DNA of 64,000 nucleotides, taken from NCBI GenBank assembly GCA_963793095.1, contig CAWBYY010000011.1, positions 277,034 through 341,033 on the forward strand. Reading direction: 5' to 3'. Below, in pieces: positions 4,052 to 52,721 of this stretch. Each line of letters starts with the position of its first letter. The stretch's first letter is position 1. A model generated the notes under the pieces. It made no database searches and was not told the DNA's origin. It saw nothing but the letters and a program-made list of their open reading frames with translations. Position numbers and translations under genes: made by a program. The stretch comes from an uncultured Chloroflexia bacterium. Lineage in GTDB: Bacteria; Chloroflexota; Anaerolineae; Anaerolineales; UBA4823.

Positions 4052-4101
4052 AAAAATCCAGAACTTACCTAATGAAACATAATGTATTATTCTGGATTTT
4101 T
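4052..4101 (+). terminator. Possible terminator (long-loop hairpin)
   Basis: AAAAAUCCAGAA ... UUCUGGAUUUUU, a 12-bp inverted repeat with a 26-nt loop just after the stop at 4024. The loop is unusually long. Confidence 0.35.
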
Positions 4102-4430
4102 CCTAACCATTTAGAGAACTTCTTCGGGAATTTTCTGAGAGTTATTTGCTTTAGCCTCTTTTGATAATTTCTTTCTAATAATCTGAGCGTTGCTCTAATG
4201 GTTGGATTGGTCACTTAAAAAATTAACCAATCTTCTTATATGATGTGATTTTATTTCACAGGTCATTACCTATAAATGTTTGTCTCTGTTGGAAGAACCC
4301 ACCAGCGATCATCATATGCATTTTGAAAGATAATGTACAAGAAATTTCCCCTTTTAAACGGATAAAAAATTTAGATTCTGAATAATTCTTGAGATTTTTA
4401 TTCTAATAGATTAGTTATTTCATCACTAAT

Positions 4431-5469
4431 TCAAAAATTCAGTCTAACAACAGATGTCAGATTGCGGGGTTTATCCGGGTCTAATCCATAACTGATAGAA
4501 CGATGATAGGCCATGAGTTGAAGAACAGGCATGTATAATACTCCTCGCACCAATTCTGGCAGGTCTGATTCGAAGTTAATATCAGCACCTTTGTCTGCTA
4601 TAACCAGAGTATTTCCGCCAATATTCTGTATCTCATTAATTACATCGGTTTCCATTTTTTGATTTTTCTCACCAAGAAGTCCAATTACTAAAGTTTTAGA
4701 ATCAACCATTGATATTGGACCATGGCGGAATTCAAGAAAATAGAAAGGCTCAGAAATGGCCAGCGACATCTCTTTTAATTTTAAGACTCGCTTCGCTTGC
4801 AAGCCCATAACGATATCCACTCCCCAAAAAGTAATACTTATTAATTTTATGATCGTTGCCTAATTCATATGCCAAATTCTCGTATTTATTGATCAGTACT
4901 TTCCCCATGGAAGGTAGTGGGTGAAGCGAGGAAAACATTCCAGCGTCATTACTCGAGAAACATGACAATGCACAAATAGCTACATAAAGCGATGCGAAAG
5001 AACGGGTCTGTGCGACACTTTCCTCCTGACCAGCAGGTATAACTAAGGAAAGATCTCCAAGAGAAACCAGATTTAAATCGCCATAATTAGTTAGCGTGAT
5101 TATTTCTCCACAATTTTTTTCTTTAAATCGCGCTGTGGCTTGTAAAGTTTCTGTAGTTGAACCTGATCGGGATATAGCAAACAACAAAGATTTTTTTTCA
5201 ATCGTGGGTAGAATTGTATTTGGCGAAAGTAATAGTTCAGATGCAGGAAAAGCTTTGCAGTTTTTCCCCGACATCGATTGCATAGTGGAAGCTGCTGCGA
5301 GAGACAGATAGTAGGTACTTCCACAACCAGTGAACAATATCTGGCTGTAATTATTCTTCCACAAATCTAAAAAATCAGGCTCAATTTCCTCAGAAACCTC
5401 AATTGCCTGCTTCCAAGCATTAGGCTGGGATTTTATCTCATTTAGGGTAGCAAATTGTCTGTCACTCAT
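4431..5469 (-). CDS. SIS-domain sugar isomerase (AgaS / GlmS-C-terminal-like), one frame break
   Basis: ORFs 4750..5469 and 4431..4820 are consecutive parts of one two-SIS-domain protein (FTGCGSTYY, SRSGSTTET, EFRHGP). The frames rejoin if the T4 run at 4773-4776 is one base shorter (..SLKIKEMSLAI..). Confidence 0.75.
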
Positions 5470-5647
5470 TAATTTATCCCTAATAATGGAATTGTATTTT
5501 AGTTGCCGGATTGAATTATTAAAACCTAAAAAAATCTCTTTATGGTGATATCACTATGTTATATGCTTATTCTATAAATTACCTGAATGCTTATAATTTA
5601 GTTATTGTCCATTTTCATTAAAAAGCCAAAATTATTGAAAAATCTTA

Positions 5648-6586
5648 TCAATCCCAATCTGAAAGTACTAAATCGAGCTCGGTCAAACTAATACACGCTA
5701 GCCCAACTTTTGTTCTGGCTGGGGAGTTGTCTGGAATATCTTCTAATCGCCCTCCTTCGTATATAAGGTACAAAAAATCCTGATATTCGAAAGGGGTTCC
5801 AAACCACACTGCGCCGTCATCCCAGTCACCCCTAGATCCTAGTTCAAAAACTGGATTATGAGAATATTTTTCCCAATCGATCAAATTTCTGGATCTTGCT
5901 AACCCGAATCCTATTGGTTTATCTTGTCGAGTGACATTATTACTACCTGCATAAAGCATGTAAAATTCTCCTCTACGCTTGATTATCCTTGGAGTTGTCA
6001 CCTCGTATTGATCCCACGAACCAGGTTCACCATTAAATAGAATTGGTTCGGGATTTGTTTGCTCAATATCTCCAGACATTGAAAGAATTGCTGAATAAAT
6101 CCTGTACCCTTCCGGAGGTTTTTTCTTTACAAAGAACAGATACAACCTGTCTGTATACAAACAAACTTCTGGTGACCTGCCATATAAAATCGATGATGTT
6201 TGTTTGGTGAATATCAATCCGTCAATACTTTTTGCCATACCAATTGAATCATCGCCTTCCCCGATTGCGCTATAAAACAACAATATATCATCATTAAGGG
6301 ATAGGGATGCAGGGTCAAAGACATGCCGGTTGTCAAATTGTTGAGGCCCAGGGGAAATTATCACCCTGGCATCGCTGGAAATAAAAGTTGCTACCCCCAT
6401 TTTCATCGCATCAAGGGGAAAAGATTGGCACAATATTCTTTCTTTTTCACTCGCAACTGCTCCAACAAATAAGTACAGATTATTCTGGTGTTCTAAGATA
6501 TCTGGTGTTGTCACCGCATCTGGAGCAACTGTGCCGGTTTTTGGTTCCAGGAATGGGCTGTTAGAAAATCTTTTAAATCTAATCAT
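5648..6586 (-). CDS. Beta-propeller glycosidase-like protein (GH43/GH130-like)
   Basis: 312-aa intact ORF. Repeated blade-like segments with conserved D/E and W (FDPASL, YSAIGEGDDSIGMAKS, YAGSN, GLARSRNLIDWEK). Family assignment is tentative. Confidence 0.5.
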   Translation of the reverse strand: MIRFKRFSNSPFLEPKTGTVAPDAVTTPDILEHQNNLYLFVGAVASEKERILCQSFPLDAMKMGVATFISSDARVIISPGPQQFDNRHVFDPASLSLNDDILLFYSAIGEGDDSIGMAKSIDGLIFTKQTSSILYGRSPEVCLYTDRLYLFFVKKKPPEGYRIYSAILSMSGDIEQTNPEPILFNGEPGSWDQYEVTTPRIIKRRGEFYMLYAGSNNVTRQDKPIGFGLARSRNLIDWEKYSHNPVFELGSRGDWDDGAVWFGTPFEYQDFLYLIYEGGRLEDIPDNSPARTKVGLACISLTELDLVLSDWD

Positions 6587-6638
6587 ATATAGATTTTGAA
6601 ATTCACTCTATTGTTTAATTTTGTTTCCATTACAGGTC

Positions 6639-7969
6639 TTATTGGTTAGCAAGACGCCATAAGGTAACAGAAGTAATCTCAGCTAAGACTTTAAGGCCAT
6701 TGATATCCACAACATTAAAATCATCCATGTAAGTGTGTAGATAAGGCCAACTGGTTGATATGAGTTTTGCCAGGTAAGAAGTAGGTACTCCTGCCAAGAT
6801 GAACGGGCCATCATCAGAGGCATATTCCAGCAAGGTACCTCAATCATATAACCAAGTTCACTACAAATTTTTTCCAAGAACCCGTTAATTTCCGGAGAGT
6901 TCCGAACAAGTTTTCCAAGACAAATTGATTCGGTGATGTAGTATAAATGATCGCCATTCCCGATAATGTCCATTACAAGCGCAGCCTTGTATTTCGATGG
7001 ATCTGGTTTTACATACTTCTTAACATATGCTTCTGAGCCTATCTCACCGTATTCCTCTGCAGTAACTGAAATAAACTCGATAGTGCGTTTAGGAGGAGGG
7101 AGATTTGAAAGAACCCGTGCGGTTTCAAGGTTTACTGCAACGGCAGTTGCATTGTCGCAGGCACCCGGACCAAAGGCATTATCATGGTGCGCAACAAGGA
7201 CAACCTTTTCATCTGGTTTTTCAACACCTTTTATTGTCGCGATTATGTTCAAGCCATGGCTTTCAACCGATTCAGAATCGACGGTAAGCCTCAGTTTTAC
7301 GGGAATACAATTCCTGGGTTCGTTTGAACCATGAGGGTAAGGCATACCACTCACGCAGCAGTCTCTTTTAGCAGTTGGCCATCCTCATAAGTAACCGCCA
7401 CCGCGGGTACTGACAGACCTTTTGGACCAGAGAGCAGGTCGGTTTGTAATATATTTCCTTGTAATCGCGAATGCTCAATGAAACCAGCAACGCCACGTTT
7501 AATCAACATTTCTGTAGGACCCTGGGGCGCGGTTTCATCTGAAGCGTTGTCCAGACTTAGTGCTCGAGGGGGATCGCGCATAACAAAAGTGTTTTCAAGA
7601 TCAATGCCTTCATAATCTTCTAGCTTACCCTGTCCTACATAACGAAGCTCTGCAACTCTTCCCTCTGGGGGAGTTGAGCCTGAGCCAAGAATGGCAACCC
7701 CAAACAATTCGCGTTCAACAGGTTCGACAATCTGGACCCGGGTATCGTGAAGATACCAAGCATTTATCCCGGGCACTTTGTCCACGCTCACTTGAACGTC
7801 TAATTTCTTAAACTCGTCTTCCACATATCCAGCTGCTTTCCATTCATTCTCTGTCGCTGCATGCCGAGGCAAATTCAATGAGAGCTTTTACATCTTCAGC
7901 CATACGAGCTGATGATATTGAATCCCTGATTAAATTAATTCCTTTCTGATCCGAATCACTATCTTTCAT
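6639..7969 (-). pseudogene. M28-family (PA-domain) aminopeptidase, at least three frame breaks
   Basis: Pieces lie in three frames: MKDSDSDQKG..ALIEF, then 7351..7878, then 6683..7354 (HHDNAFGPGACDNATAVA metal-ligand region), then 6639..6833. Breaks are near 7866-7875, 7352-7357 and 6833-6845. Confidence 0.7.
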
Positions 7970-8050
7970 ATTCATCTCCTTGCAAAAGATATTTACAACA
8001 GAAAATCGGCACCACAATAACGAATATATAAATCAGTGAAATGAAATTTC

Positions 8051-8092
8051 CAAAAATGGGCGAGCCTGGAAGGGTGAACCTGAGGCTCGCCC
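8051..8092 (-). terminator. Rho-independent terminator downstream of the SBP gene
   Basis: Minus strand: GGGCGAGCCU ... AGGCUCGCCC, a 10-bp stem followed by AUUUUUG, about 25 nt after the stop at 8118. Confidence 0.75.
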
Positions 8093-8117
8093 ATACCCCA
8101 ATAAAACAGATTATGAA

Positions 8118-10418
8118 CTACTCAAGCGGCTTGTCAACCCAATATAAAAGATCCTCGCGTGCAAGGAATTTTTCAAACCACTCATTGAGCGGGTTCTGGC
8201 GCAGATAATCAGCATCTTCAGGCAGGTCCTGAGATCTTTCAACATAATACGAGGCCGAATCCTCCCAGTATAGCGGTGATTCAGGGTTGAAGGCTGTCTC
8301 AGCATCCTGCTGGTAAGTGCGAAAATCCAGGAATGTGTCGAAGATAAACTTCAACTCATCCGGGTCAGTGGCCACACCGGAATGGGCATTCATGGCTTCT
8401 ACAACAATTGGTAAAACTTTTTCAGGCATCTCTTGGACGTAACGATTGAAAAGGTAGGAGAGAGCCATTATACGTAATGCAGCTTCTTCATTAGAAGCCA
8501 GCCATTCTTCTGTAGAGGCGATATTGCTGTACCACAGACCGGCAGGACCGAGAATTTCTGCTCCTCCAATCAGCTTGAATTCATCCGGATGGTTCATCAG
8601 CAGGTTAATTTCGGATGGCAAACCGCCCATATAGAAATCACCTTCCCCGCCAATCATGGCAAGAGCAGCTTTTTCATCGTCTGGGAAGTTGATTGTGGTG
8701 ACATCATCCAGTGTGAGGTCGGCCTGCTCCAGGACTGCAGTGAGCAGAGGTTCATAGTTAGCAAGGTAGATTGGGAAGGTTTTTCCCTCGAGCTGTTTGA
8801 TTGTAGCGACTTTGGCTGCTTCAGGGTCGCCCAGTTCATCGAGGAATTCCTCATAAGATTTGGATTCGCCCTGACGGCCTAAGACTACGAAGCCTTTGAA
8901 TTGGTTGACGTTGAGGAAGTTCTGCATCTCTGGGACAAATTCATAGAACGGGAAGTTGCAGACAACACAGGTGTTAACAGTATCTAGAGAGCCGTTAGCA
9001 AGGGCCTGGATGGAAGGACCGCTTTGGGTGAGCCATTCGAACTGCAGGTCGAATTCCTGAACTCTTCATCCCAACCGAACTCATCAGCAACACTCCAGAA
9101 TTGGTAGTCAAAGAAGGGTGTGTTACCAACCCGGATAACATATGGTTCAGAGGGTATTTGTACCTGAGGAGGTGGGGGCGGTGCTGGTTCAGTTCCAATA
9201 GTTCCCAATTCGGCATCTACCCAAGCAGTCAAATCCTCATTCTGGAGGAATTTTTCAAACCACTCATTGAGCGGGTTCTGGCGCAGGTAATCGGCGTCTT
9301 CAGGCAGTTCCTGAGATCTTTCAACATAATACGAGGCTGAATCCTCCCAGTATAGCGGCGATTCAGGGTTGAAGGCTGTCTCAGCATCCTGCTGGTAAGT
9401 GCGAAAATCCAGGAATGTGTCGAAGATAAACTTCAACTCATCCGGGTCAGTGGCCACACCGGAATGGGCATTCATGGATTCTACAACGATAGGAAGCACA
9501 GCATCCGGATATTCTTGAACGAAACGATTAAATCGGTATGAAAGCGCAGCAATCTTCTGCGCAGCTTCTTCATTAGAAGCCAGCCATTCTTCTGTAGAGG
9601 CGATATTGCTGTACCACAGACCGGCAGGACCGAGAATTTCTGCTCCTCCAATCAGCTTGAATTCATCCGGATGGTTCATCAGCAGGTTAATTTCGGATGG
9701 CAAACCGCCCATATAGAAATCACCTTCCCCGCCGATCATGGCAAGAGCAGCTTTTTCATCGTCTGGGAAGTTGATTGTGGTGACATCATCCAGGGTGAGG
9801 TCGGCCTGCTCCAGGACTGCAGTGAGCAGAGGTTCATAGTTAGCAAGGTAGATTGGGAAGGTTTTTCCCTCGAGCTGTTTGATTGTAGCGACTTTGGCTG
9901 CTTCAGGGTCGCCCAGTTCATCGAGGAATTCCTCATAAGATTTGGATTCGCCCTGACGGCCTAAGACTACGAAGCCTTTGAATTGGTTGACGTTGAGGAA
10001 GTTCTGCATCTCTGGGACAGATTCATAGAACGGGAAGTTGCAGACAACACAGGTGTTAACAGTATCTAGAGAGCCGTTAGCAAGGGCCTGGATGGAAGGA
10101 CCGCTTTGGGTGAGCCATTCGAACTGCAGGTCGAAGTCCTAACTCTTCATCCCAACCGAACTCATCAGCAACACTCCAGAATTGGTAGTCAAAGAAGGGT
10201 GTGTTACCAACCCGGATAACATATGGTTCTTCCCCTACCGGCTCTTCTTCAGCCGGTTCTTCAGACTCTGGCTCCTCCACATTCGTCTCTTCTGCAACAG
10301 GCTCCTCAGCTGCTGGAGCTTCTGTTGGCGCAGGAGCTGGTTGGCATGAGCCTAACAACATACCAAGAACCAAGAGAATGGCTATTGATAAGTAAACAAA
10401 GCTTATACGAACGTTCAT
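8118..10418 (-). pseudogene. Lipoprotein ABC substrate-binding protein (NMT1/THI5-SsuA-like) with an internally duplicated SBP domain; two frame breaks
   Basis: ORFs 10077..10418 (signal peptide with LLGSC lipobox, acidic linker), 8984..10009 and 8118..8927 join into one reading frame. Domain 1 runs through a PAPPPPPQVQ linker into domain 2 with no stop between them. Each domain is broken between GWDEE and DFDLQFEW. Confidence 0.7.
8160..10229. repeat. Tandem direct duplication, two units of about 1 kb with a period of about 1082 bp
   Basis: 8879-8938 and 9961-10020 are identical except for the last base, and 9120-9148 equals 10201-10229. Long stretches are near-identical, with a more diverged patch around 8420-8500 / 9500-9580. 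Confidence 0.9.
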
Positions 10419-10545
10419 TTTCTACTCCTTTTTAAATAATTCTAAATAAAATCGAATTTATAAAAAATCTTGATATTATTTTGTTATCACCTCCTTATTC
10501 TGATGAAAAAAATGTTTAACCTCATAACTGGTTGTTTCTAAAAAT

Positions 10546-11370
10546 TCACTTTGTACCCACAATTGATGCCACAACGCCGATGCTGGATCGTCGTTCTGTC
10601 CAAGAAGTAATTCTTCTTTCAATATAGGCAATAATCGTATCCATTATCACCGCCAGAATGCTATAGACAATAACCAGCAAAATTATGCCTGCAGTTCTAA
10701 GGTAAGTCTGTTGCAGGATGATTAAATAACCCAAGCCTTGTTGTGATCCCATAAATTCAGCTGCCACATCCAATCCCCATGATGCAGCCGCAGCCACACG
10801 GATGGCACCGATCAGGTGAGGAATGATGTAAGGCACAATCACAGTGGAGTAAATTCGCTGCCGGTCTGCCCCCAGAGTGAGTGCTGCCCGAATATAAATG
10901 GTTGGTACATTTCTGATAGCTTCAAGAGTGGTGACACCTAAAATAACTGAAGTGCCCAGAGCAATTAATGCAATTTGTGGTTCTCGTCCAATACCGAACC
11001 AGAGGATAAATAATGGAATAAGCGCAAAAACGGGAACTGGGCGCAAAAAATCAAACACTGTGCCCATTGTCTCTCTTACAGCTCGGCTGTATGCCATAAT
11101 TAACCCGGATATTGTTCCAAATATTACGCCAATTGCAAAACCAGTAAGGACCATTAATACGGAGGTCAATATGGCAGCAGGTAGGATTTTGTACAATCCC
11201 TTAAAAGTTACCCACAAATCTGCAGGAGTGGGAATAAATAATGGCTTGACAAGTCTAAATTCTGATATAAACACCCAGATAATTATCAATGCGACCGGAA
11301 CGATTAATTTTGGTAATACCTGAATTGTGGAGAACTTACCTAAAAATTTTTTCTTCGAATATGTTTCCAT
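10546..11370 (-). CDS. ABC transporter permease (NitT/TauT-type)
   Basis: 274-aa polytopic ORF with a binding-protein-dependent transport inner-membrane signature (EAIRNVPTIYIRAALTLGA). Confidence 0.85.
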   Translation of the reverse strand: METYSKKKFLGKFSTIQVLPKLIVPVALIIIWVFISEFRLVKPLFIPTPADLWVTFKGLYKILPAAILTSVLMVLTGFAIGVIFGTISGLIMAYSRAVRETMGTVFDFLRPVPVFALIPLFILWFGIGREPQIALIALGTSVILGVTTLEAIRNVPTIYIRAALTLGADRQRIYSTVIVPYIIPHLIGAIRVAAAASWGLDVAAEFMGSQQGLGYLIILQQTYLRTAGIILLVIVYSILAVIMDTIIAYIERRITSWTERRSSIGVVASIVGTK

Positions 11371-11470
11371 ATATACCCATTATTGTTTTTAGTTAAATAA
11401 AGATGTAGATTTTTAAGCCGCTTTGAATTACTAAAAAATAAATACTTATAAGAGGAGTACTGTGAACCAG

Positions 11471-12238
11471 TTAAATTTCATCAGAAGAGCCTAAAAGGAC
11501 AAAACCCAAATCGCGTCTCATTTCCTGAAATTCTGGTTGAGTTTTCAGGTCTGGAGGCCTCGGCCTTTCGAAAGGTATATCGACAATGCATTTCACTTTT
11601 CCGGGCTCATTTGACATAACAACAACTCGATCTGACATATATAGTGCTTCTTCCAAATCGTGGGTAACAAATATCACGGTGATTGGATTATTGCTCCAAA
11701 TATTTAAAAATTCAGTTTGTAATTTAGCTTTTGTTAGGACATCTAAAGCAGCAAAAGGCTCATCCATCAGTAATACTTCTGGACTAGTTGCAACAGCTCT
11801 GGCAACATCAACTCTTTTGCGCATGCCTCCTGATAATTGCCGCGGGAACAAGTTTTCAGCATCTTTCAATCCAACTAAATTAATGTGATGGTCTGCGATC
11901 CTTTTCATTTCCTCAGGTTGTAATTTTTGGATCCTCAACCCGTATTCAATGTTTTGTCTGACCGTATACCAAGGGAAGACTGCATCATCTTGAAAAACCA
12001 TTGTTCGATCTGGTCCCGGATGAGTTATTTCATTGCCTTTTAAAAAGACTTTCCCTTCTGAAGGTGGTAAAAGCCCAGCAATAATATTTAATAATGTTGA
12101 TTTTCCACAACCCGAAGATCCAACAATTGTGACAAATTCTTGATCGAGGATGTTCAAATGAAAATCTTCAATAATCCAATGATGATCGTAGCGGAAATAA
12201 ATATGCTCTAAATTAATAATGACTTTCTCTTCAATCAT
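11471..12238 (-). CDS. ABC transporter ATP-binding protein
   Basis: Walker A GSSGCGKST, signature LSGGMRKR, Walker B LLMDEPF. Confidence 0.9.
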   Translation of the reverse strand: MIEEKVIINLEHIYFRYDHHWIIEDFHLNILDQEFVTIVGSSGCGKSTLLNIIAGLLPPSEGKVFLKGNEITHPGPDRTMVFQDDAVFPWYTVRQNIEYGLRIQKLQPEEMKRIADHHINLVGLKDAENLFPRQLSGGMRKRVDVARAVATSPEVLLMDEPFAALDVLTKAKLQTEFLNIWSNNPITVIFVTHDLEEALYMSDRVVVMSNEPGKVKCIVDIPFERPRPPDLKTQPEFQEMRRDLGFVLLGSSDEI

Positions 12239-12304
12239 AATTGCATAATAATAGGTGTTGATCCGGGTCTTTTTGTGTGAGTGCTGAATAAATTATTAAA
12301 ATAT

Positions 12305-13072
12305 TTAAATTTTGGCTAAGATTAATTTGACTCCCAGATGACGAATCCGTTCAGCATCACCAGCTGAAATATTAGTATCGGTAATGAGATAGTCGACCTC
12401 TTCAACAGGCGCGATTAATGCTGTTCGGACGATGCCAAATTTTGAACTATCTGTTACCACAATCAAATTGCGAGCAATGCTGATGATATTGCGATCCGTT
12501 TCTGCATCTTTTAAAGATTCTGAAGTGATTCCCTGATCAATATCAATTGCAGAGACACCCATGACTGCCTTGTCTATTCGCAAACGGTTAAGCGTAAAGT
12601 TACCTATTTCACCTACAAGAGTCAGGTGTTTAGGTACGAGTGTGCCTCCTGGAACTATGACCGCAATTTCCGGGAAGTTAACCATGTAATTAATGATGTT
12701 AATTGCGCAGGTTATGACAGTAATACCATGTTTATTGGTTAAATTTCTTGCTACCTCCTTTGTGGTCGTACCGCCACTCAAAAAGATGGTGTCCCCATTT
12801 TCTACAAGATTGGCAGCATATCTGCCTACTGCTTCCTTTTCTTTGCGATTAAGTTGAGCGCGGGTCAAGATTGGCAATTCGAGTTCGAATTGGTAATAGG
12901 TGCTTGCCCCACCTCGATTTCGTTGTATGAGATTTTTTTCAGACAGGTCTCTTAAATCACGGCGAATTGTAGCTTCGCTTACTCCAAAACGTGCACTCAG
13001 ATCATCAACACCAATATCTTCAGTTTCGCGAATGAGGCTCAGAATTTGCCGTCTTCTTTGATTAACTTTCAT
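12305..13072 (-). CDS. DeoR/GlpR-family transcriptional repressor
   Basis: N-terminal HTH (VSEATIRRDLRDL) plus a C-terminal DeoR sugar-phosphate sensor domain. Confidence 0.85.
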   Translation of the reverse strand: MKVNQRRRQILSLIRETEDIGVDDLSARFGVSEATIRRDLRDLSEKNLIQRNRGGASTYYQFELELPILTRAQLNRKEKEAVGRYAANLVENGDTIFLSGGTTTKEVARNLTNKHGITVITCAINIINYMVNFPEIAVIVPGGTLVPKHLTLVGEIGNFTLNRLRIDKAVMGVSAIDIDQGITSESLKDAETDRNIISIARNLIVVTDSSKFGIVRTALIAPVEEVDYLITDTNISAGDAERIRHLGVKLILAKI

Positions 13073-13381
13073 TGAATATATAAAATTACTAAACGGATAT
13101 TTAAGAAATCATCAAAATATGATAATATAATAGCAATATTATGATCAATTGTCAATCAAAATAAACAAAAATTTGACTATTATGTGCAAATTGGATATAA
13201 ACTGATCAATTTAGGTTCCCATTATTATATAAAACTGATTTTTGTATGAACATCAATATAATGTGTATGAGATCATATTTCTATTCTGGTTGATCCTCAT
13301 CCTTGCTTAAAAATTAATCGTAAAAAAGGACTAAATTTGATAAAAGTAAAAACCGAAATTATTTTGCATAATGGAGTTTAA

Positions 13382-14285
13382 TTGATGAGCAATAAAGATG
13401 TCGATATTCTCGTGGTGGCGGAAATCAACCCAGATATCATTCTTACTGGGAATGTTGAGCCAGATTATTCCCAGGTTGAGACTCTAATTGGTGATTATTC
13501 TCTTACAATTGGGAGTTCGGGTGCAATCTTTGCATGTGGTGCAAGCCGATTGGGATTGAAAGTTGCTCTCATTGGAATTGTTGGAGATGATTACTTTGGC
13601 CATTTTATGCTAGATAGTTTAAAGTTGCGAGGTGTTGATGTAACAGGGTGCATAATTGATCCCCAAAAAAAAACAGGAATTAGTGTCATCCTTAATACGC
13701 GGAGAGGATCGTGCTATTCTTACATATACAGGTACAATCCAGGCTTTACGTAGTCAAGATGTTGACCGGTCATATTTAAGACGCGGACAACACCTGCATG
13801 TATCCAGTTGTTTTTTACAAGAGGCACTGCGCCCCGGGCTCCCCAAGTTATTAACCGATGCACATCATAATGGCATGAGTGTCTCTGTAGACACAAATTT
13901 TGATCCAAAAAACGAGTGGAATCATAATATTTTAAAAATTCTCTCCCAAACGGATATTTTCTTCCCAAACGAGCATGAAGCATGTGCAATAAGTCGGCAG
14001 CAAGATGTTTATAATGCTCTATCCTTTCTTGCAGGTATTGTTCCAGTTGTGGCAATTAAAAGAGGTAGATTAGGAGCAATTGTCCAAGATAACCAAAATC
14101 AGTATTCTTGTGAAGCTTTTCCTGTAGAAGTTGTCGACACTACGGGTGCTGGTGATAGTTTTAATGCAGGTTTTTTATATGGATATTTGCATTCTTTTCC
14201 AATAAATGATGCGCTGCAATTGGGTTGTGCTTGTGGTGCAATATCCACCCAATCCATCGGGGGAACCGATTCTAACCGACTTTAA
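13382..14285 (+). CDS. PfkB-family carbohydrate kinase, one frame break
   Basis: ORFs 13382..13753 and 13656..14285 are the N- and C-terminal parts of one kinase (DTTGAGDSFNAGF motif). The frame changes between ..GISVILNT and GEDRAILTY near 13697-13703. Confidence 0.75.
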
Positions 14286-14412
14286 ACGAGACTTTAGAAT
14301 TTATATCAAAACAGGAATCTCAACCTCAAAATAATCGATAGTAAACAATAAGGTTATTTGGTTGGTCAGGATTTTCTAATGGTAATTGCAATTAAAATCA
14401 AAAGGTAATCGT

Positions 14413-15738
14413 TTGGTGTATCCTGACCCAATTTCTAATTTAACCTCACTACAAAAAAGGTTTTCCAGTTGGCATATGTTCAGTATGTTCATACAACCCT
14501 TATGAATTGGAAGCAGTTTTGCGAAAAGCCAAAAAAGACGGAAAACCAGTACTGGTAGAATCAACTTCCAACCAGATCTACCAGATTGGGGGTTAAACAG
14601 GAATGACTCCAATCTTGTTTGTGAGTTTATTAAAGAACTTAAGGAAAGAATAGGAATTAATTCTGATCAGGTGATGTTGGGCGGAGATCATCTTGATCCC
14701 TACTCAAGGCTAAATGAATCTGCAAGTGTTGCTATGGAAAAAGCGACTCAATTGGTTATAGATTATGTACAAGCACGTTATTTAAAAATTCATTTGGATG
14801 CAAGTATGTGCCTGGGCGGAGATATGAAAAGCGTGCTACCAGTCGAGATTGTAGCAGAACGCACCGCTGTTTTATGCAGAGAAGCAGAAGAAACCTGGAA
14901 CAGATTATCAGATGTGAAGATCCTCCATATTATGTGATTGGAACAGAAGTGCCAGCCCCGGGTGGTGCCCTTAATGAAGTTGATGATTGATTTAGATGTA
15001 ACAAGTGTTGAAAGCGAGAAAGAGATGCTAGAGGCCACTAAAAAATCCTTTGTAAGAAATGGTATACATTCAACTTGGGAACGTGTCATTGCTTTGGTTG
15101 TCCAACCTGGTGTGGAGTACAGTGTCACATCCGTTCATTCCTATAATTGAATCGCAGCTGAAGAATTATGAGAATATGTTAAAAATGTCCAAGGTCTGGT
15201 GTTTGAGACACATTCTACAGATTATCAGAAGCGTAGCGCACTCAAAAAAATGGTAGAAGATCAATCTGCAATATCTGAGGGTTGGGCCAGCACTTACATT
15301 TGCCTTTAGAGAAGCTGTTTTTGATTTAGAATTAATTGAGAATGAGTTGTATTCTGGTGATAAAAAATTTACGCTTTCAAAGTCACAGGCTATAGTTGAG
15401 ATGGAGATGATGAGAATTCCAGCATAATGGGAGTCATACTATAAAGGAACTCTGAACAGCAAAGGTTTGCCCGTCGTTTAAATCTTAATGACCGGATTTG
15501 ATATTGCTGGGCAAAACCAAGGGTCAAATCATCTTTTAATTGTTTGTTTGAGAATCTACAAAAACAGCCAACCCCGCTTTCACTTATAAGCCAGTGTCTA
15601 CCTTATCAATATCGGAAAGGGTTTAATAGACAAGCCAATTTACGCATTTCACCATTAGAATTGATTGTGCATAAGATCAATGGAGTGGTGGATGACTATT
15701 ATTATGCTTATTATCTGGATGTCCGGGAGATTAAATGA
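14413..15738 (+). pseudogene. GatZ/KbaZ/AgaZ-like tagatose-bisphosphate aldolase subunit, heavily degraded
   Basis: Collinear with E. coli GatZ across several frames (PVGICSVCS, VLVESTSNQ, GGDHL, KIHLDASM, VIGTEVPAPGG, VVQPGVE, ETHSTDYQ, VGPALTFA). In-frame TAA at 14594-14596 and 15425-15427, TGA at 15499-15501, and at least five frame changes. Confidence 0.8.
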
Positions 15739-16098
15739 AAAGTTGATTTGCTACCCGAGAATTCAAATGCCGAAGAGCATCAGATTAATAAATACAATGC
15801 TGGCAAGTTTCTGATATTTGGATTGATTATCAAAAGGATTTAGCACCTCTGTATTCTAACCCTAGATGCTGGTATACACATCACATTCCCAGATGTGCAA
15901 GGTAATTGATTATTAAGGTTTTTTCCAAGTAATTTCTGAAAATCCAAACAGCAAATATATATATACACAAAATAAAAAACCCATAATGTGTGGTGCTTTT
16001 AAACTTAAATCTGGTATTGAATATTCTTGGCACTTTCAGCAATTATTTTTACATTAAATATCTTGAATTTACCAAGTTTCAAACCAAAAGTTATAAAA

Positions 16099-17799
16099 TC
16101 ACTCGTTCAGGTTGTAGATTCTGACGTAATCGATTCCATTAATTCTGACGGTATGTTCCGGTGATAGATCGCCCAGGTGGTCCATCAGTTTCTTGGGGGA
16201 ATCGTGCTGCCACTGGTTGATATAAATCACTGCATAATCGGCGGACAAATAATCCCTGAGGCGCCAATCACTGATTTCTTCATCCAGAAAGAGCGGGTCA
16301 GCGATGAAACCAAGCGAGGCGCTGTACCAGTTGAACGCGAGCGGAAACCAGGCGATTACCCGTTTATCCTGTATCGCTGGTTTCTGGCGCAGGTAAATGG
16401 CGGCTTCGCTGAGCCCTTCGCCCCAGCCTGTGTCAAGACCGTCCCTGAGTGCTTCGTCAGGGCTTCCCATAATTGGATTGAAATAAGTCAGGTAATAAGG
16501 ATGGTGCGGGATAATTATTACAAGCTGCACAACCAGCAGGATTCCGATGATTCCGTACCTGATTAAATTCGGATTCAAATTTAACCAGCGGGAATTTATC
16601 CAATCCGCAGTGGCGATCCAGCCGATTCCAGCGATTAAATTCAAGGGCAGAAAAACAGGCAGGAGATAACGATCGTATTTTTTAGCCCCAACGCTCATTA
16701 CCAGGGTGAAAATAATCACATAAAGAAGTAAGTAGAGCACATAAAACCGGCGTTCATACGCCAGGGCAGGGGGTTTTTTCCGAATTATAAAAATCAGAGC
16801 CAGAATACACCCCACCCAGACCAGGAAGGTGCTGCGCCAGAGATATGCTTTGATATAGAACAGAACCGGATTTACCGGATCAGGATCTGCCAAACCGGAG
16901 GCTGGTTCGTTATCACTTGCAGCAACGCCTACCACCGTTGCGGTAAAAGTATCCCTGTAAAGGGAGGTGATTAATTCAAAGGGGGTAACCCACATCGCCG
17001 GCCAGAACAGGGTGAAGAAGATGATGATCAATAAAATCCACCCAAAGAATGGAAACACATATTTTTTTAGAGCCAACCGCAGTCTGTCACGGTTTGACCT
17101 GCGCCAGGTTCGAAAGAGTTCCAGCAGGGTGAGCAAACCGACGACCGGTAGGAAAATCAAACCCTGGGTCACGGTCAGGATGGCGAGACTGGTAGCAATA
17201 CTCGAAACAATCAGCCCATGCAAGCGGTTCTCTTTTAAAAAATAAATATAGGACAGCAGCGCCAGGAACAAAAAACTGCTGATCAGTCCGTTGGTATGGA
17301 AAACGCGCGAGTGGGCGATGTGAAAGGGGTCCAGGGCGATCACGATAAAGCCGGGAATGACATACCAGAGGCTGAAGATTTTGCTGGAGTAATAAAAACT
17401 GACCAGCAGTGTAAGGATGATAACCACCGCCTGAATTAAGCGGGCAGTGGACAGGACCTGAATCAATGGCGGGCCGTGCCTCGAAAAAAGCTGCTGCAGT
17501 TTTGTATCACCCAGCGAAGTCTGTCCAACCTTGCTGTACCTGGGAAACCGGAGTTTAAAGGCTGCGGAGCCAATCCAGTAGCTGGTCACTCCCGGATGCC
17601 CTGACTGGTAAGTTGAGGCATAATCATTATGTGAGATTGCATAGAAGAAGTTAGCTGACCTTTTCCCCCAGGTTGGTTCATCGGCTGTTACGAACTGCCC
17701 GGGCTGGATCAACCTGGGAAGAGCAAGCAGAACTGCCAGTCCTGCCAATACCAGCAGGAATCCCGCCAGAGTTTTTCTGTCCATGAGTGATTGTTGCAT
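16099..17799 (-). CDS. GT-C fold glycosyltransferase (PMT / ArnT-like, GT39/GT83 type)
   Basis: 566-aa ORF with more than 10 TM segments, an acidic first-loop motif (TADEP) and a C-terminal soluble domain. Confidence 0.7.
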   Translation of the reverse strand: MQQSLMDRKTLAGFLLVLAGLAVLLALPRLIQPGQFVTADEPTWGKRSANFFYAISHNDYASTYQSGHPGVTSYWIGSAAFKLRFPRYSKVGQTSLGDTKLQQLFSRHGPPLIQVLSTARLIQAVVIILTLLVSFYYSSKIFSLWYVIPGFIVIALDPFHIAHSRVFHTNGLISSFLFLALLSYIYFLKENRLHGLIVSSIATSLAILTVTQGLIFLPVVGLLTLLELFRTWRRSNRDRLRLALKKYVFPFFGWILLIIIFFTLFWPAMWVTPFELITSLYRDTFTATVVGVAASDNEPASGLADPDPVNPVLFYIKAYLWRSTFLVWVGCILALIFIIRKKPPALAYERRFYVLYLLLYVIIFTLVMSVGAKKYDRYLLPVFLPLNLIAGIGWIATADWINSRWLNLNPNLIRYGIIGILLVVQLVIIIPHHPYYLTYFNPIMGSPDEALRDGLDTGWGEGLSEAAIYLRQKPAIQDKRVIAWFPLAFNWYSASLGFIADPLFLDEEISDWRLRDYLSADYAVIYINQWQHDSPKKLMDHLGDLSPEHTVRINGIDYVRIYNLNE

Positions 17800-32808: not shown

Positions 32809-34460
32809 TCAGTAAGTCATGGCGCAGCCGTCGGCCCTTGGATCGCTGCCAGCGCAAAGCACCCCGTCTTGCGGATTTCTGAGGATGATCTGTCCCAGGC
32901 CGTATAAGTGAAACAACCCCTCCGACCCGGGCTGGATATCGTGACCTATATCAGAAAGTTTCCGGAAAACTTCAGCAGGCATGCCGCTTTCAAGCGCCAG
33001 CTGCCCTCCCGCTTCTCCGTTAGTAATGCAGAAGCGTGGGCGGTCAAGAGCGGATTGAGGGTCCAGGCCGTCGTCGATCAGCCCGGTGAGCACCTGCACA
33101 TGCCCCTGAGGCTGCATGAACCCGCCCATAACTCCGAAACAGGCGTACAGTTCTTCCTTAGGATCGCCTCTAGTTCTGCCCTCAAGCGGGGTTGTGACCA
33201 GCCCGGGGATGATCGTGTGGTAAGGGCGTTTTCCCGGTTCGAGCGCATTGGGGTGGGCAGGGTCCAGGCTGAAGTTTGCGCCGCGGTTCTGCAGGCTGAA
33301 TCCCCAGCCAGGCGGCACAATGCCGGTGCCGAAGCCCATATAGTTACTGTTGATGAAAGAACAGGCGTTGCCAGCCCCATCCATAACGCTCAGGTATACC
33401 GTATCTGATGAAGCAAAAGGGCTGCCTTTAACCTGGTCAAGGGTGGCTCTTTCCCGGTCGATCAATTTGCGTCTCTGTTCTGCGTAATCTTTTGAAAGCA
33501 GGGCTTCGACCGGCGCCGGATTAAATTCCGGATCGGCGATATACCCGCACGCATCTGCAAAAGCCAGCCGCATTGCCTCAATCTCAAGGTGGAGCCGGGA
33601 GGCGGAAAGCGGTTCAAGCGAACCCAGGTCAAAGCCTTCCAGGATGTTGAGCGCCAGCAGGGCGGCCAGCCCCTGCCCGTTGGGGGGGCATTCCCAGACC
33701 CGCAGCCCGCGGTAGATGGTGCTGATTGGCGTCACCCATGCGCTGCGGTGGGCGCCAAGGTCTTCTTCACTCAGGCAGCCGCCCGCTGTCCGGACCACAT
33801 TCACAACTGCGCGCCCGATCTCCCCGCTGTAAAACCCGTTTTTTCCCTCCCTGGCGATGACTTTGAAGGAGCGCGCCAGGCCGGGGTTTCTGAACAACTG
33901 GCCCGCCTGGGGGGCTTCCCATTGACTGTCAATTCAAGGCCTCCCGGAGCTGTCCGGAGTTGTTTTTCAAACCCTTTTTCCCAGAAGTGGGCGGTCACCG
34001 GCGAGACCGGAAAACCATTTTCAGCCAGGCGGATCGCCGGGCTCAGCACCTCAGCCATGGACAGGGTCCCGAAGCGTTCAACCAGGTCGCACCAGCCGGC
34101 CGGTGCGCCCGGGACTGTGATCGTGTAGGGATGGAATGGTGGCAGTTCCCGGTCCAGGCCTTCCCGGCGCAGGCGCTCTATTGTCAAGCCTTGCGGGGCG
34201 CGACCGGAACCATTGAGGGCGTGGACACTGCCGGAATCGGCCTGATAATAAAGGGCAAAACAATCCCCGCCCAGTCCGGTTGAGGTGGGCTCGGTGACAT
34301 TCAGGGCTGCAGCTGTCGCAACGGCCGCGTCAGCGGCGTTCCCGCCGCCTGACAGGATCTCGAGCCCGGCCGCGACCGCCAGCGGTTGGGAGGTCGCAAC
34401 CATGCCGCGCGTCCCGTAAACCGGTGAACGTGCGCTATTATTCGAGCTATAGGACTTCAA
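32809..34460 (-). CDS. ggt: Gamma-glutamyltransferase, one frame break
   Basis: ORFs 33801..34460 (N-terminal) and 32809..33897 (contains the SDTVYLSV autoprocessing Thr region) are consecutive. The break is at the G6 run 33909-33914. Confidence 0.85.
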
Positions 34461-35516
34461 TTCCAGCGCCTTCGATTACCTCCCCGACAAGCCACAGTTC
34501 CTGCCCTGCCGCTGACCCTGCCTGGAGCATATCATTCAGCCGGTCTGCAGGGACGGAAATCAGCAAACCGCCGCTGGTCTGGGCGTCAAACAGCAGCATC
34601 CTGGAGGGCTCATCAATTTTGGAGGCAAAATCCACATATTCAGCATAATAAAGCCGGTTATCAATGGATCCCCCAGGAAATACCCAATCCTTTGCATACC
34701 CTGCTGCACCGGAAAGAAAGGGGATGCTTTCAAAGTCGAACCGGAACCTGACCCCAGAGGCGGACGCCATTTCATAAGCATGACCCAGCAGGCTGAAACC
34801 GGTGATGTCAGTACCCGAGCGGACTCTAAACCGGCTGGCGAGTTCTGAAGCGGTTTTGTTCAGGCGTTTCATCCAACCAACGGCATTCTCCAGATATTCG
34901 GCTTGAACAATCCCGCGCTTGAGCGCAGTGGAGATCGTCCCGGTGCCGATTGGTTTGCTGAGTACCAGCCTTTCCCCGGGTGCGGCGTTCATTTTTGTAA
35001 TGATTTTGTCCGGTTCGACAAAACCAAGCACGATCAGGCCGTATTTCGGTTCTTTGTCCTGGATTGTGTGACCGCCGGCGAGCACAACGCCGGCCTCCTG
35101 AGCCTTTTCTGCGCCGCCGCGAAAATCTCAGCGCTGATCTCGCCGGGGAGGTCCGGAGGCAGGGCGGCGATATTCAAGGCCAGGAAGGGCTGCCCGCCCA
35201 TGGCGTAAACGTCTGACAAAGCGTTGGCAGCCGCGATCGCGCCGTAGTCATAGGGGTCATCCACAACCGGGGTGAAGAAATCCGTGGTCGCAACCAGGGC
35301 GCGATCGTCGTCGATCCGCCAGACCGCGGCGTCGTCGCTTTCACCCAGGCCGACCAACAAATCGGGGTAGTCTGCAGATTGGTATATCTCTTTCAGCGGG
35401 CGCAGCACCTGCGCCAGAGCTTCAGCGCTCAGTTTCGAAGCTCAACCGGCGCAATCCGAAAGACTGGTCAGGCGGATCATTTTCCCGGAAGGGGATTTGG
35501 TTCCGTTGTCATCCAT
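34447..35516 (-). CDS. selD: Selenide, water dikinase (selenophosphate synthetase); in-frame UGA (Sec) at 35442-35444; one frame break
   Basis: ATG at 35516 gives [38 protein letters not shown].., in frame with track ORF 35034..35408. The UGA aligns with Cys17 of E. coli SelD (GAGCGCK). AIR-synthase-like body. The frame break at the A4 run 35122-35125 joins it to ORF 34447..35085. Confidence 0.8.
35417..35444 (-). other. SECIS-like hairpin starting within the selD UGA
   Basis: Minus strand: U-GAGCUUC-GAAACUGAGCGCU-GAAGCUC, a 7-bp stem with a 13-nt loop. Confidence 0.55.
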
Positions 35517-51370: not shown

Positions 51371-52654
51371 TTAATTCGAAGGGCCTTCTTCGGCTTCCTG
51401 TAATTTTTCTTCGACCATCTCGCGCAGCTCTGCGAGGTCGTGCAGGACCTCGTATGCGCCGTGCCACTGCGAATAATCCGGGCCCTGCATCCAGACCCCG
51501 AATTTGGCGGTGCGCCCCCAGTGGTGCCACAGGTTGAAGAAGGTGAAGTCTATCGTCTCATCGAAGGGCTCGGAAGTCAGCAGCCCCTGGTCCCTCAGAG
51601 GCTGGATGATATCCTGGCTCTCCACCACCCATTCGTTAACCCTTTCAGTGGCTTTATCAGCTGCCGGGTAGAAGTCATCAATAAAGGTTTGTGAGTGGCA
51701 TTCCAGGCATACTCCCTGCATGCGGACTTTGTTGTCCTGCCAGGCTGGTCTGCGGGTGCTTACCGGAGCAAAAAGGTACCAGGTCAGCCGGTCGCCGATG
51801 TCGTGAGATGTACCGCTTGTGCCAAATCCGCTCATATGGCAGATTGCGCAGGTGGGGGCCGGGAAGTCCTCGACAGTCAGAGTGCCAGGTTCCGCCTCCC
51901 AGTTCCAGGTATATCCCATGGTATTGTAGGCAATTCCGTGAGGGGACTCGATATATATCTCGTACTGCGGGTGGTCGGGGCCGATATGGCAGTAGTTGCA
52001 GGTTTCCGGCTTTCGGGCCTGTTCCAGGCTGAATTCATGCCTGAGATGGCACATCTGGCACTGGCCGGGAGAACCATCCACCCCGGGTTTACCTATATCG
52101 TGGCAGGCCTCGCAGGTGAAGCGGGTCATCGCTTCGCCTTCAAGCCTGTGAATGTCGTTGCGGGATTTATCCGGCGAATAGCTTCCTTCCGGTATGGCTT
52201 CGTACATTGCAAGCAGCTCCGGGGACAGGTCTTCGGAGCCTGCATAGGCTACATAAGCCGGTATGCTGTGACGGCTCTGGTGGAATTGGGCCACTTCAGC
52301 AGCGTGGCATTTCTGGCACATTGTGGTTGTGGGCGAATTCAGGACGTGGGTGCCCTCGTGTTCAATCGCGCCGGGGTAGTCCGCCGCCACTTCGTGGCAG
52401 TCCTGGCAGGCAACCTCGGCAGCCGCCATTGAACTGTGGCTGTACTGTTCGATAATGCCCGGTGAGGTTTTGCGGTGGCAGATAACGCATTCGTTATCGC
52501 TGTTGGCGAGCACATCAATTTCTTCAGTCTCGACCGGCGTGCCTGCCCTCCCGATCGCCATGATGATCAAAGCTGCTCCCAGCACAACAATCACCGCAAC
52601 CAGTCCGATTATGAGCGCTTTTAAAAATCCTCTGCTGTCCGAACCTTCACTCAT
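51371..52654 (-). CDS. Octaheme c-type cytochrome, hydroxylamine-oxidoreductase (HAO)-family-like, N-terminal membrane anchor
   Basis: Eight CxxCH motifs (CVICH, CQDCH, CQKCH, CEACH, CQMCH, CNYCH, CAICH, CLECH), an N-terminal TM helix and an HAO-like C-terminal helical region (FFNLWHHWGRTAKFG). ATG at 52654 after GGAG. Confidence 0.8.
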   Translation of the reverse strand: MSEGSDSRGFLKALIIGLVAVIVVLGAALIIMAIGRAGTPVETEEIDVLANSDNECVICHRKTSPGIIEQYSHSSMAAAEVACQDCHEVAADYPGAIEHEGTHVLNSPTTTMCQKCHAAEVAQFHQSRHSIPAYVAYAGSEDLSPELLAMYEAIPEGSYSPDKSRNDIHRLEGEAMTRFTCEACHDIGKPGVDGSPGQCQMCHLRHEFSLEQARKPETCNYCHIGPDHPQYEIYIESPHGIAYNTMGYTWNWEAEPGTLTVEDFPAPTCAICHMSGFGTSGTSHDIGDRLTWYLFAPVSTRRPAWQDNKVRMQGVCLECHSQTFIDDFYPAADKATERVNEWVVESQDIIQPLRDQGLLTSEPFDETIDFTFFNLWHHWGRTAKFGVWMQGPDYSQWHGAYEVLHDLAELREMVEEKLQEAEEGPSN

Positions 52655-52721
52655 TTTGGATTCTCCAAACAATTGTATTAATGTTTTCCCAGTATTCCCC
52701 TAATATTATTTTAATGCTTCT

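Follow-up and report, generated by a model that had tools for sequence, protein, structure and literature searches.

The locus described here raises two questions: whether a head-to-tail duplication has produced a binding protein with two substrate-binding domains on one polypeptide, and why both copies of the duplicated unit lose their reading frame at the same place. It is found at positions 8118-10418, on the minus strand, of a stretch of 64,000 nucleotides (nt) from contig CAWBYY010000011.1 of an uncultured Chloroflexia bacterium; this whole stretch is referred to as the window. Our results showed that the locus encodes a genuine two-domain binding lipoprotein of a NitT/TauT-type (SsuA/TauA/ThiY-like) ATP-binding cassette (ABC) importer. 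From its N-terminus onward, this protein possesses a lipid anchor, a disordered acidic tether, binding domain 1, a Pro-rich linker and binding domain 2, and its repaired form is 765 amino acid (aa) residues long. Overall, the locus is probably best explained as a genuine tandem lipoprotein gene whose frame breaks stem from errors in the consensus sequence. The gene and its parts are as follows.

8118-10418, minus strand: whole two-domain substrate-binding lipoprotein gene, 2301 nt as assembled, from three-frame translation
10425-10431, minus strand: Shine-Dalgarno-like sequence AAAGGAG, 6 nt 5' of the ATG at 10418-10416, from direct reading of the sequence
10344-10418, minus strand: predicted signal peptide and lipobox (..LLGS followed by the lipobox Cys, which is Cys25 at 10346-10344), from translation
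10227-10343, minus strand: acidic Pro/Glu/Ala-rich tether QPAPAPTEAPAAEEPVAEETNVEEPESEEPAEEEPVGEE, from translation
9215-10226, minus strand: binding domain 1 (unit 1), from alignment with single-domain homologs, tblastn and repeat analysis
9146-9214, minus strand: Pro-rich inter-domain linker AELGTIGTEPAPPPPPQVQIPSE, in frame and free of stop codons
8121-9145, minus strand: binding domain 2 (unit 2), without a signal peptide of its own, from translation and alignment
8050-8094, minus strand: intrinsic-terminator-like hairpin followed by AUUUUUGG, ~25 nt past the stop codon

The binding-protein gene is delimited by the Shine-Dalgarno-like sequence and the terminator-like hairpin. The latter contains a central helix of ~12 bp (GGGCGAGCCU...), and the 86-nt fold has a minimum free energy of -27.6 kcal/mol (z = -3.2), which none of 200 shuffled sequences equaled. 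The hairpin was not picked up by a scan for terminator patterns, as its loop size is outside the pattern used. Translation proceeds in frame 0 from the ATG at 10418 via the signal peptide, Cys25 and the tether to ..YVIRVGNTPFFDYQFWSVADEFGWDEELGL, continues in frame 1 with DLQFEW.., the rest of domain 1, the linker and the start of domain 2 to ..GWDEEF, and returns to frame 0 from DLQFEW.. to the stop codon at 8118-8120. Removal of three surplus bases shortens the gene from 2301 to 2298 nt, which correspond to 765 codons and a single terminal stop. In the alignment, the homologs of the binding-protein gene carry the same ..L.AC.P lipobox motif, and a lipoprotein anchor is usual for binding proteins of bacteria without an outer membrane. 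In the AlphaFold2 (AF2) model of the intact homolog P0001, the predicted local distance difference test (pLDDT) score is <50 for most of residues 26-58, the region equivalent to the tether, as is expected for a disordered tether. The layout of signal peptide and lipobox, acidic linker, binding domain, Pro-rich linker and second binding domain had been proposed in an earlier note on this DNA; it was borne out, and the same architecture was found in an independent relative, contig L001.

Tandem Repeats Finder, whose longest covered period is 500, reported nothing. The repeats were mapped instead by a direct-repeat search and by pairwise alignment of the units. Direct head-to-tail repeats on the minus strand were found between 8164-8463 and 9246-9545 (1082-nt spacing, 90% identity), between 8479-8778 and 9561-9860 (1082-nt spacing, 99% identity) and between 9060-9148 and 10141-10229 (1081-nt spacing, 100% identity). 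These repeat families and the alignment agree with the head-to-tail duplication described earlier. The period of about 1082 bp given for it needs correction, as the true period is 1080 nt (360 codons) with the surplus bases removed. The units are near-perfectly identical save for a patch of ~80 nt, hereafter the divergence island, and the unit ends. At the junction, translation runs from ..WVDAELGTIGTEPAPPPPPQVQIPSEP into YVIRVGNTPFF.. with no stop codon in between, also as previously claimed, and the repaired open reading frame (ORF) has no internal stop. We have high confidence that the duplication is real, because each unit possesses private sequence (the divergence island and the ends), because the linker is absent from single-domain homologs, and because L001 has both units.

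L001 is an independent, syntenic 81-kb ENA contig with ~75% nt identity, which carries the proteins P0029 and P0002. The order of genes for a DeoR-family regulator, an ABC ATPase, a permease, the binding protein, an M28 peptidase and a SIS-domain protein is kept in L001 (1-13152). A tandem homolog with a matching linker was looked for, and L001 provided one: its binding-protein gene (L001 4848-7152) encodes a signal peptide with lipobox, a tether, a domain, the linker TELGTIGSEPEPTPPPVLTLGDQ and a second domain, with a period of 1080 nt, and the linker, also given as TELGTIGSEPEPTPPPV, is homologous to that of the window. Because the architecture and a homologous linker are shared, the fusion predates the separation from at least one other lineage. 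Late in unit 1, the tandem gene of L001 contains one surplus C (AAT CCG [C] ATG). Because of this base, the gene caller split the gene into P0029 and P0002, and public protein sets list two genes in its place, which overlap and are 389 and 383 aa long. As both assemblies break the gene, the two-domain architecture has gone unseen by gene callers.

All other homologs identified were of the single-domain type. The homology search found 172 proteins, the best of which were 75-85% identical, and all were single-domain proteins of ~330-430 aa. The few named homologs came from Anaerolineae, Chloroflexota and similar metagenome-assembled genomes and were annotated as nitrate/sulfonate/bicarbonate-type binding proteins. 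Five species-representative loci (L003-L007) found in the scan of GTDB genomes, as well as the short Logan contig L002, were also single-domain only. In the search of family representatives, as in structure prediction, the junction-spanning ORF P0018 and the intact homolog P0001 stood in for the repaired protein; none of the ~200 family representatives among 1.84 billion proteins was a two-domain member. Two long hits of this search, P0228 and P0248, were rejected as two-domain members, as they are unrelated repeat proteins. A search with a junction-spanning peptide returned 16 fragments and no protein across the junction. In metagenomes, the tail motif W-V-D-x-[ED]-L-G-T-[IV]-G was matched at 10 loci, none of which encodes the protein, and they were dismissed as chance matches. 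The single-domain homolog P0006 (L002 467-1678) ends with ..WVDRDLGTVGNEP and a stop codon, a tail similar to the beginning of the linker (..WVDAELGTIGTEP..). The linker may have arisen from a C-terminal extension of this kind; alternatively, the tail may be what is left of a lost second unit.

The four units, two from the window and two from L001, were aligned as DNA, and the divergence island was located from this alignment.

9478-9560, minus strand: divergence island of unit 1 (..AAQKIAALSYRFNRFVQEYPDAVLPIVVES..)
8396-8478, minus strand: divergence island of unit 2 (..AALRIMALSYLFNRYVQEMPEKVLPIVVEA..), with an R to L change at a family-invariant Arg

The units of the window differ at 45 of 969 columns, and 34 of these differences fall within the 83 columns from 655 to 737 (9560-9478 and 8478-8396), which agrees with the earlier description of near-identical units with one diverged patch. 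Similarly, the units of L001 have 71 differing columns, 48 of which are within columns 630-774. Outside the island, the identities between units were 0.97-1.00 within a genome and ~0.75 between genomes. Inside the island, the identities within a genome were 0.58-0.72, no better than those between genomes, and synonymous changes account for many of the differences. The shared linker points to one ancestral fusion, and the identity within each genome points to repeated homogenization in both lineages, with the same island spared. This pattern suggests that intragenic gene conversion keeps the 1080-nt units near-identical in each genome. Gene conversion had been suggested before from the mosaic identity of the two units, and the recurrence of the pattern in L001 supports that suggestion. 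No clear signal of positional orthology of the island across the genomes was found, as 23-26 of 35 residues were identical in all four pairings, with DNA identities of 0.57-0.72.

The island (~80-150 nt) could be maintained by selection, by a divergence barrier to conversion, or by independent replacement. It encodes the helix-turn-helix stretch after the second hinge strand (in the AF2 model of P0001, helices at ~283-302 and 304-319 that follow the last strand), and its ~27 codons include the family-invariant motif SYR.NRY. Compared with 44 homologs, unit 2 of the window deviates at invariant or near-invariant positions by R295L and S133F (8727 region) and unit 1 by Y299F; R295L and Y299F fall in the island. 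These deviations may reflect functional divergence, relaxed constraint or further base errors. Unit 2 of L001 has no deviation at an invariant position, and its unit 1 has W278Y. A diversity-generating retroelement was dropped as the origin of the island, as the differences involve all four bases and are not adenine-specific. We tentatively raise the possibility of an adaptive two-site receptor, in which conversion would homogenize most of both domains and selection would protect one short island, identical in location in two lineages with ~25% DNA divergence, such that the domains differ in ligand or permease docking. If true, the tandem-domain principle of GlnPQ would have a counterpart among free-standing lipoproteins of another binding-protein family, and nature would offer an example of concerted evolution in which a specificity island is protected. 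The recurrent island also offers a testable handle on which part sets specificity or docking in this poorly characterized family.

The reading frame is lost in both units at the homologous place, as had been noted before, by the following surplus bases.

10133, minus strand: frame break 1, one surplus base in GAG TTA GGA CTT [C] GAC CTG, a +1 shift
9051-9059, minus strand: frame break 2, two surplus bases 7 nt apart in GAG TTC [A] GGA ATT [C] GAC CTG

Without exception, the aligned intact homologs read GWD[KE]ELG[LI]DLQF[TE]W. The placement of the breaks between GWDEE and DFDLQFEW in the earlier note needs correction: ELG[LI]DLQF is the family reading, and the DF and EF at the start of DFDLQFEW and EFDLQFEW are out-of-frame read-through residues. 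At site 1, either base of the dinucleotide TC may be the surplus one, as Leu is encoded by CTT as well as by CTC; L001 has CTC GAC there. At site 2, the first surplus base is at 9059 or 9058 (TT[C]A or TTC[A]) and the second at 9051. TTA is favored at this site, with C as the surplus base, because Leu is invariant in the family at that codon. Deletion of the three surplus bases at sites 1 and 2 gives a clean 765-aa ORF. The repair proposed earlier, lengthening GG to GGG at both sites, fails, as 23 stops remain; it mends the frame at site 2 only and adds a residue found in no family member. Both units of L001 are in frame at the homologous GWDKELGLDLQF sites, as are loci L002-L006 (codons CTC/CTG/ATC GAC). 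Moreover, over their first 250 nt, the two units show clustered differences at one place only (TT-AGGAC vs. TTCAGGAA), and the surplus bases sit there. Breaks occur in the window at ~1 per 5 kb overall. If they were random and independent, a break in one unit would be matched by another within a few bases of the homologous position in well under 1% of cases. The same-site coincidence needs a cause, though not necessarily a biological one. No shared sequence or methylation motif emerged across the break sites: CAGGAATT is present at two sites, and CTGCAG/TCGAC at the sites of the binding-protein gene only.

The three frame breaks are most likely not present in the DNA of the organism and would be base-calling or assembly errors. 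In an insertion/deletion (indel)-prone, long-read-like assembly, single-base consensus errors would arise at third codon positions for which reads of the two near-identical units, or of co-existing strains, carry different bases and both alleles are retained in the consensus. In this way, CTT and CTC (both Leu) would become CTTC, ATT and ATC (both Ile) would become ATTC, and TTA and TTC would become TTCA; at the codon concerned at site 2, unit 1 has TTA. Both units would be hit at the same site because the consensus step doubles alleles where the units differ. The surplus C of L001 likewise falls on a third codon position at which the two L001 units do not agree (CCG[C] vs. CCT), and GAG[A] in the M28 gene of the window fits the same pattern of a doubled third position. 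Frameshifts caused by indels are a well-documented feature of consensus sequences built from long reads (PMC9262707).

Other genes of the window are also broken. The binding-protein gene is part of a low-GC (guanine plus cytosine) island at 4100-16100, which has ~40% GC with stretches of 32-37%, vs. ~54% in the rest of the window, and which contains the genes for the SIS-domain protein, a GH130-like protein, the M28 peptidase, the tandem binding protein, the permease, the ATPase, DeoR, a PfkB-family kinase and a GatZ/KbaZ-like protein. This island could be recently acquired or strain-variable, or it could be a lower-coverage or chimeric stretch of the assembly. The split genes delimited in the window are as follows.

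6642-7878, minus strand: M28-family aminopeptidase gene with 3 breaks, delimited with the L001 protein as guide
~14400-15740 (region 14.4-15.8 kb), plus strand: GatZ/KbaZ-like gene (tagatose-bisphosphate aldolase subunit), at least 4 short ORFs in alternating frames
13382-14285, plus strand: PfkB-family sugar kinase gene, split into ORFs of 123 aa and 209 aa, from Pfam fragments
32809-34460, minus strand: gamma-glutamyltranspeptidase gene, split, outside the low-GC island
34447-35408, minus strand: AIR-synthase-related gene, split, outside the low-GC island
52784-53900, minus strand: M24 peptidase/prolidase gene, split, outside the low-GC island

The breaks of the M28 gene are GAG[A]CTG near 7365, GAA[T]TGT near 7312 and a GGG reduced to GG near 6839, and the gene is otherwise ~80-89% identical to its intact 457-aa ortholog of L001. 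The GatZ/KbaZ-like ORFs match positions 82-165, 161-183, 184-236 and 366-418 of the Pfam profile, and two of the breaks are only ~70 nt apart and lead back to the same frame. Some breaks of the window fall in homopolymers of 6-9 bases: the PfkB ORFs overlap at the A9 homopolymer CCCCAAAAAAAAACAGG (~13660-13680), the gamma-glutamyltranspeptidase gene is split near an A6 run, and the overlap of the M24 ORFs holds a C6 run. For each of the split genes outside the low-GC island, the two ORFs match one and the same Pfam profile, each covering the half that the other lacks. In L001, the split genes are those for DeoR, the SIS-domain protein, ApbA and the binding protein, a set that differs from that of the window. 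DeoR is intact in the window and split in L001, and M28 is intact in L001 and split in the window. Beside the ~6 indels in the binding-protein and M28 genes, no in-frame nonsense codon was found. The lack of nonsense codons, together with many different single-base breaks in two independent assemblies, fits an error process that produces indels only. Given that the flanking genes have many similar single-base breaks and that L001 is in frame, the hint in the earlier note that same-site breaks go beyond error or decay did not hold. More generally, near-identical intragenic repeats in long-read metagenome assemblies can gain matching frameshift artifacts at homologous sites, and such artifacts can pass for meaningful parallel mutations.

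Several points weigh against this reading. The error origin is read from sequence patterns, and the three breaks in the binding-protein gene as well as two in the M28 gene are non-homopolymer insertions, unlike the classic nanopore deletion in homopolymers. In addition, the breaks cluster in the M28, GatZ-like and binding-protein genes, whereas the permease, ATPase, DeoR and GH130-like genes are intact, and gene-wise clustering of breaks is also a signature of real pseudogenes. Unit 2 deviates from the family at invariant positions (S133F and R295L), which could reflect relaxed constraint. As for the homogenized units, the island has no clear positional orthology between the two genomes, and short-read polishing could make the units look more alike outside the island than they are.

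Among the alternatives, the one that survives best, although we consider it unlikely, is that the breaks are real and that the tandem gene is a recent pseudogene in a decaying, horizontally acquired, low-GC catabolic island. The surplus C (TT[C]GAC) would then have arisen once and been copied between the units by gene conversion, and the second base of unit 2 would have followed later; since the sequence on either side of the shared C is 100% identical in the two units, its transfer within a conversion tract is conceivable. The low-GC island (4.1-16.1 kb, 40% GC vs. 54% elsewhere) has at least 12 of the ~15 recognizable breaks of the window, in five genes (3 in M28, at least 4 in the GatZ-like gene, 1 in SIS, 1 in PfkB and 3 in the binding-protein gene), of which several are hit repeatedly, and four neighbors are intact. 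The alteration of unit 2 at invariant residues would also fit decay. However, the broken genes have no nonsense codons, larger deletions or raised divergence, and the M28 fragments are all ~80-89% identical to the L001 protein. The share of split genes is also unusually high in L001 and elsewhere in the window, and the surplus bases resemble doubled synonymous third positions at sites where the units vary. Moreover, a protein interrupted by the break at codon 97 would be 113 aa long, but a perfect ORF persists over the following 2 kb. Other signs of decay were not found in the binding-protein gene: no internal stop is present after repair, the domains are 75-85% identical to intact orthologs over their full length, and the repaired protein has only 3-4 deviations at invariant positions.

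It is very improbable that the duplication is an assembly artifact in which one gene was written twice. Long stretches of 99-100% identity between the units in a plainly error-prone contig are what such an artifact would leave, but each unit has its own 83-nt island, with 58-72% identity, and the ends of the units also differ, with the acidic tether vs. the Pro-rich linker at one end and the linker vs. the stop codon at the other. Furthermore, the linker is found in no single-domain homolog, and the same two-unit gene is present in the independent assembly of a different organism (~75% nt identity). The unit-specific sequence, the unique linker and the second assembly answer in the negative the possibility of an assembly duplication that the earlier note had raised. 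Programmed recoding, in which +1 shifts at CUU-CGA-C (site 1) and at both positions of site 2 would yield the full-length protein, is scarcely credible: AGGA CUU CGA C at site 1 loosely resembles known +1 sites such as CUU UGA C of prfB and CUU AGG C of Ty1, and re-pairing of tRNA-Leu from CUU to UUC is plausible, but sites 2a and 2b (UUC A and AUU C) have no such resemblance and would require two successive +1 shifts with poor re-pairing at both UUC-A and AUU-C, the site lacks conservation (CTC/CTG/ATC GAC keeps the frame in L001 and at five other loci), the sites appear to share no stop or hungry-codon logic, and like surplus bases are present in the unrelated neighboring M28 gene (GAG[A]CTG and GAA[T]TGT).

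A genuine tandem lipoprotein gene with consensus errors remains the preferred reading, and the family of its product was assessed by profile and structure comparison. The Pfam profile NMT1 (PF09084) matched both domains, in 2 stretches of the repaired protein (E=7.4e-12, 46.1 bits vs. a cutoff of 20.5), which places the protein with the cluster F type II binding proteins. The AF2 model of P0001, which is 85% identical to unit 2, had a pLDDT of 88, and Foldseek matched it with a probability of 1.0 to 6ssy (TauA), 2x26 and 3uif (SsuA), 3ix1 (ThiY), 4h6d (Thi5) and CmpA/NrtA-type structures. The target-normalized template modeling (TM) scores of the TauA, SsuA, ThiY and Thi5 matches were 0.54-0.74, and the identities to the solved structures were 13-17%. 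Via this model, a two-lobe, SsuA/TauA/ThiY-like periplasmic-binding-protein fold was supported, in line with the SsuA/ThiY-like proteins named in the earlier note. Searches of the PDB by sequence, with a single sequence or a profile, found nothing useful. SsuA proper (TIGR01728, SsuA_fam) scored 22.4 bits vs. a cutoff of 163.5, over the first 54 profile positions only. As this score is far below the cutoff, the substrate should not be called sulfonate.

The transporter genes of the operon and their regulator are found directly upstream.

10546-11370, minus strand: ABC permease (BPD_transp_1), same operon, syntenic in L001
11471-12238, minus strand: ABC ATPase (NitT/TauT-type), same operon, syntenic in L001
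12305-13072, minus strand: DeoR-family regulator, upstream of the transporter genes, syntenic in L001 and split there by a frame break

The permease is encoded by a separate gene, 127 nt upstream of the start of the binding-protein gene. Its best NCBIfam matches, to SaoP/TauC/SsuC, do not reach the curated cutoffs, and those of the ATPase, to NrtCD/SaoA/TauB, are below the equivalog cutoffs. The context (window 4431-16100) suggests an amino sugar, fructosamine or glycated peptide as the compound taken up and catabolized, rather than sulfonate, nitrate or a thiamine precursor, because the neighbors are DeoR, PfkB, GatZ/KbaZ-like, SIS-domain (GlmD/AgaS/FrlB-like), GH130-like and M28 genes. In addition, a gene for a multi-heme cytochrome c (Pfam Multi-haem_cyto, E=1.7e-31) is found at 51371-52672 on the minus strand of the window and overlaps the start of a 357-aa ORF without a family match. 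No tRNA gene was found anywhere in the window.

In the cell, the two tethered binding sites would be offered to one permease, which would raise the local concentration of receptor. The closest relatives with one domain, the orthologs P0020, P0039 and P0093 and those of loci L003-L007, are similar to the window protein in that they are 65-85% identical in aa sequence over the whole domain and also have a signal peptide with lipobox and a tether. Different from the window protein, they contain only one domain and are 330-430 aa long. The SsuA/TauA/ThiY/NMT1-Thi5 group has in common with the window protein the match to the NMT1 profile, the predicted fold and the type of permease and ATPase in the operon. 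Different from members of the SsuA/TauA/ThiY group, the domains of the window protein are ~340 aa each, with extra C-terminal helices, and two of them are found on one polypeptide.

Tandem binding domains are also known from GlnPQ of Lactococcus lactis and other Gram-positive bacteria, in which they are fused to the permease and differ in specificity and affinity (PMC8025302). GlnPQ and the window protein, the latter after repair of its frame, both hold two tandem binding domains at the membrane on one chain that serves one translocator. Different from GlnPQ, whose domains are fused to the transmembrane domain, the tandem of the window is encoded as a lipoprotein apart from the permease gene and carries a signal peptide and lipobox of its own. 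Compared with GlnPQ, it also belongs to a different binding-protein family, and its domains are ~94% identical and not clearly differentiated. The window protein is best filed as a two-domain member of the SsuA/TauA/ThiY-like group and not of the GlnPQ family. If it is functional, tandem binding domains would also exist as free lipoproteins in an SsuA/TauA-like family of Chloroflexota-type bacteria, beyond the permease-fused GlnPQ. The differences reported between the GlnPQ domains provide a functional precedent for the diverged island of the window gene. By analogy with GlnPQ, if the island alters binding or docking, it might confer a broader or tuned specificity on the importer.

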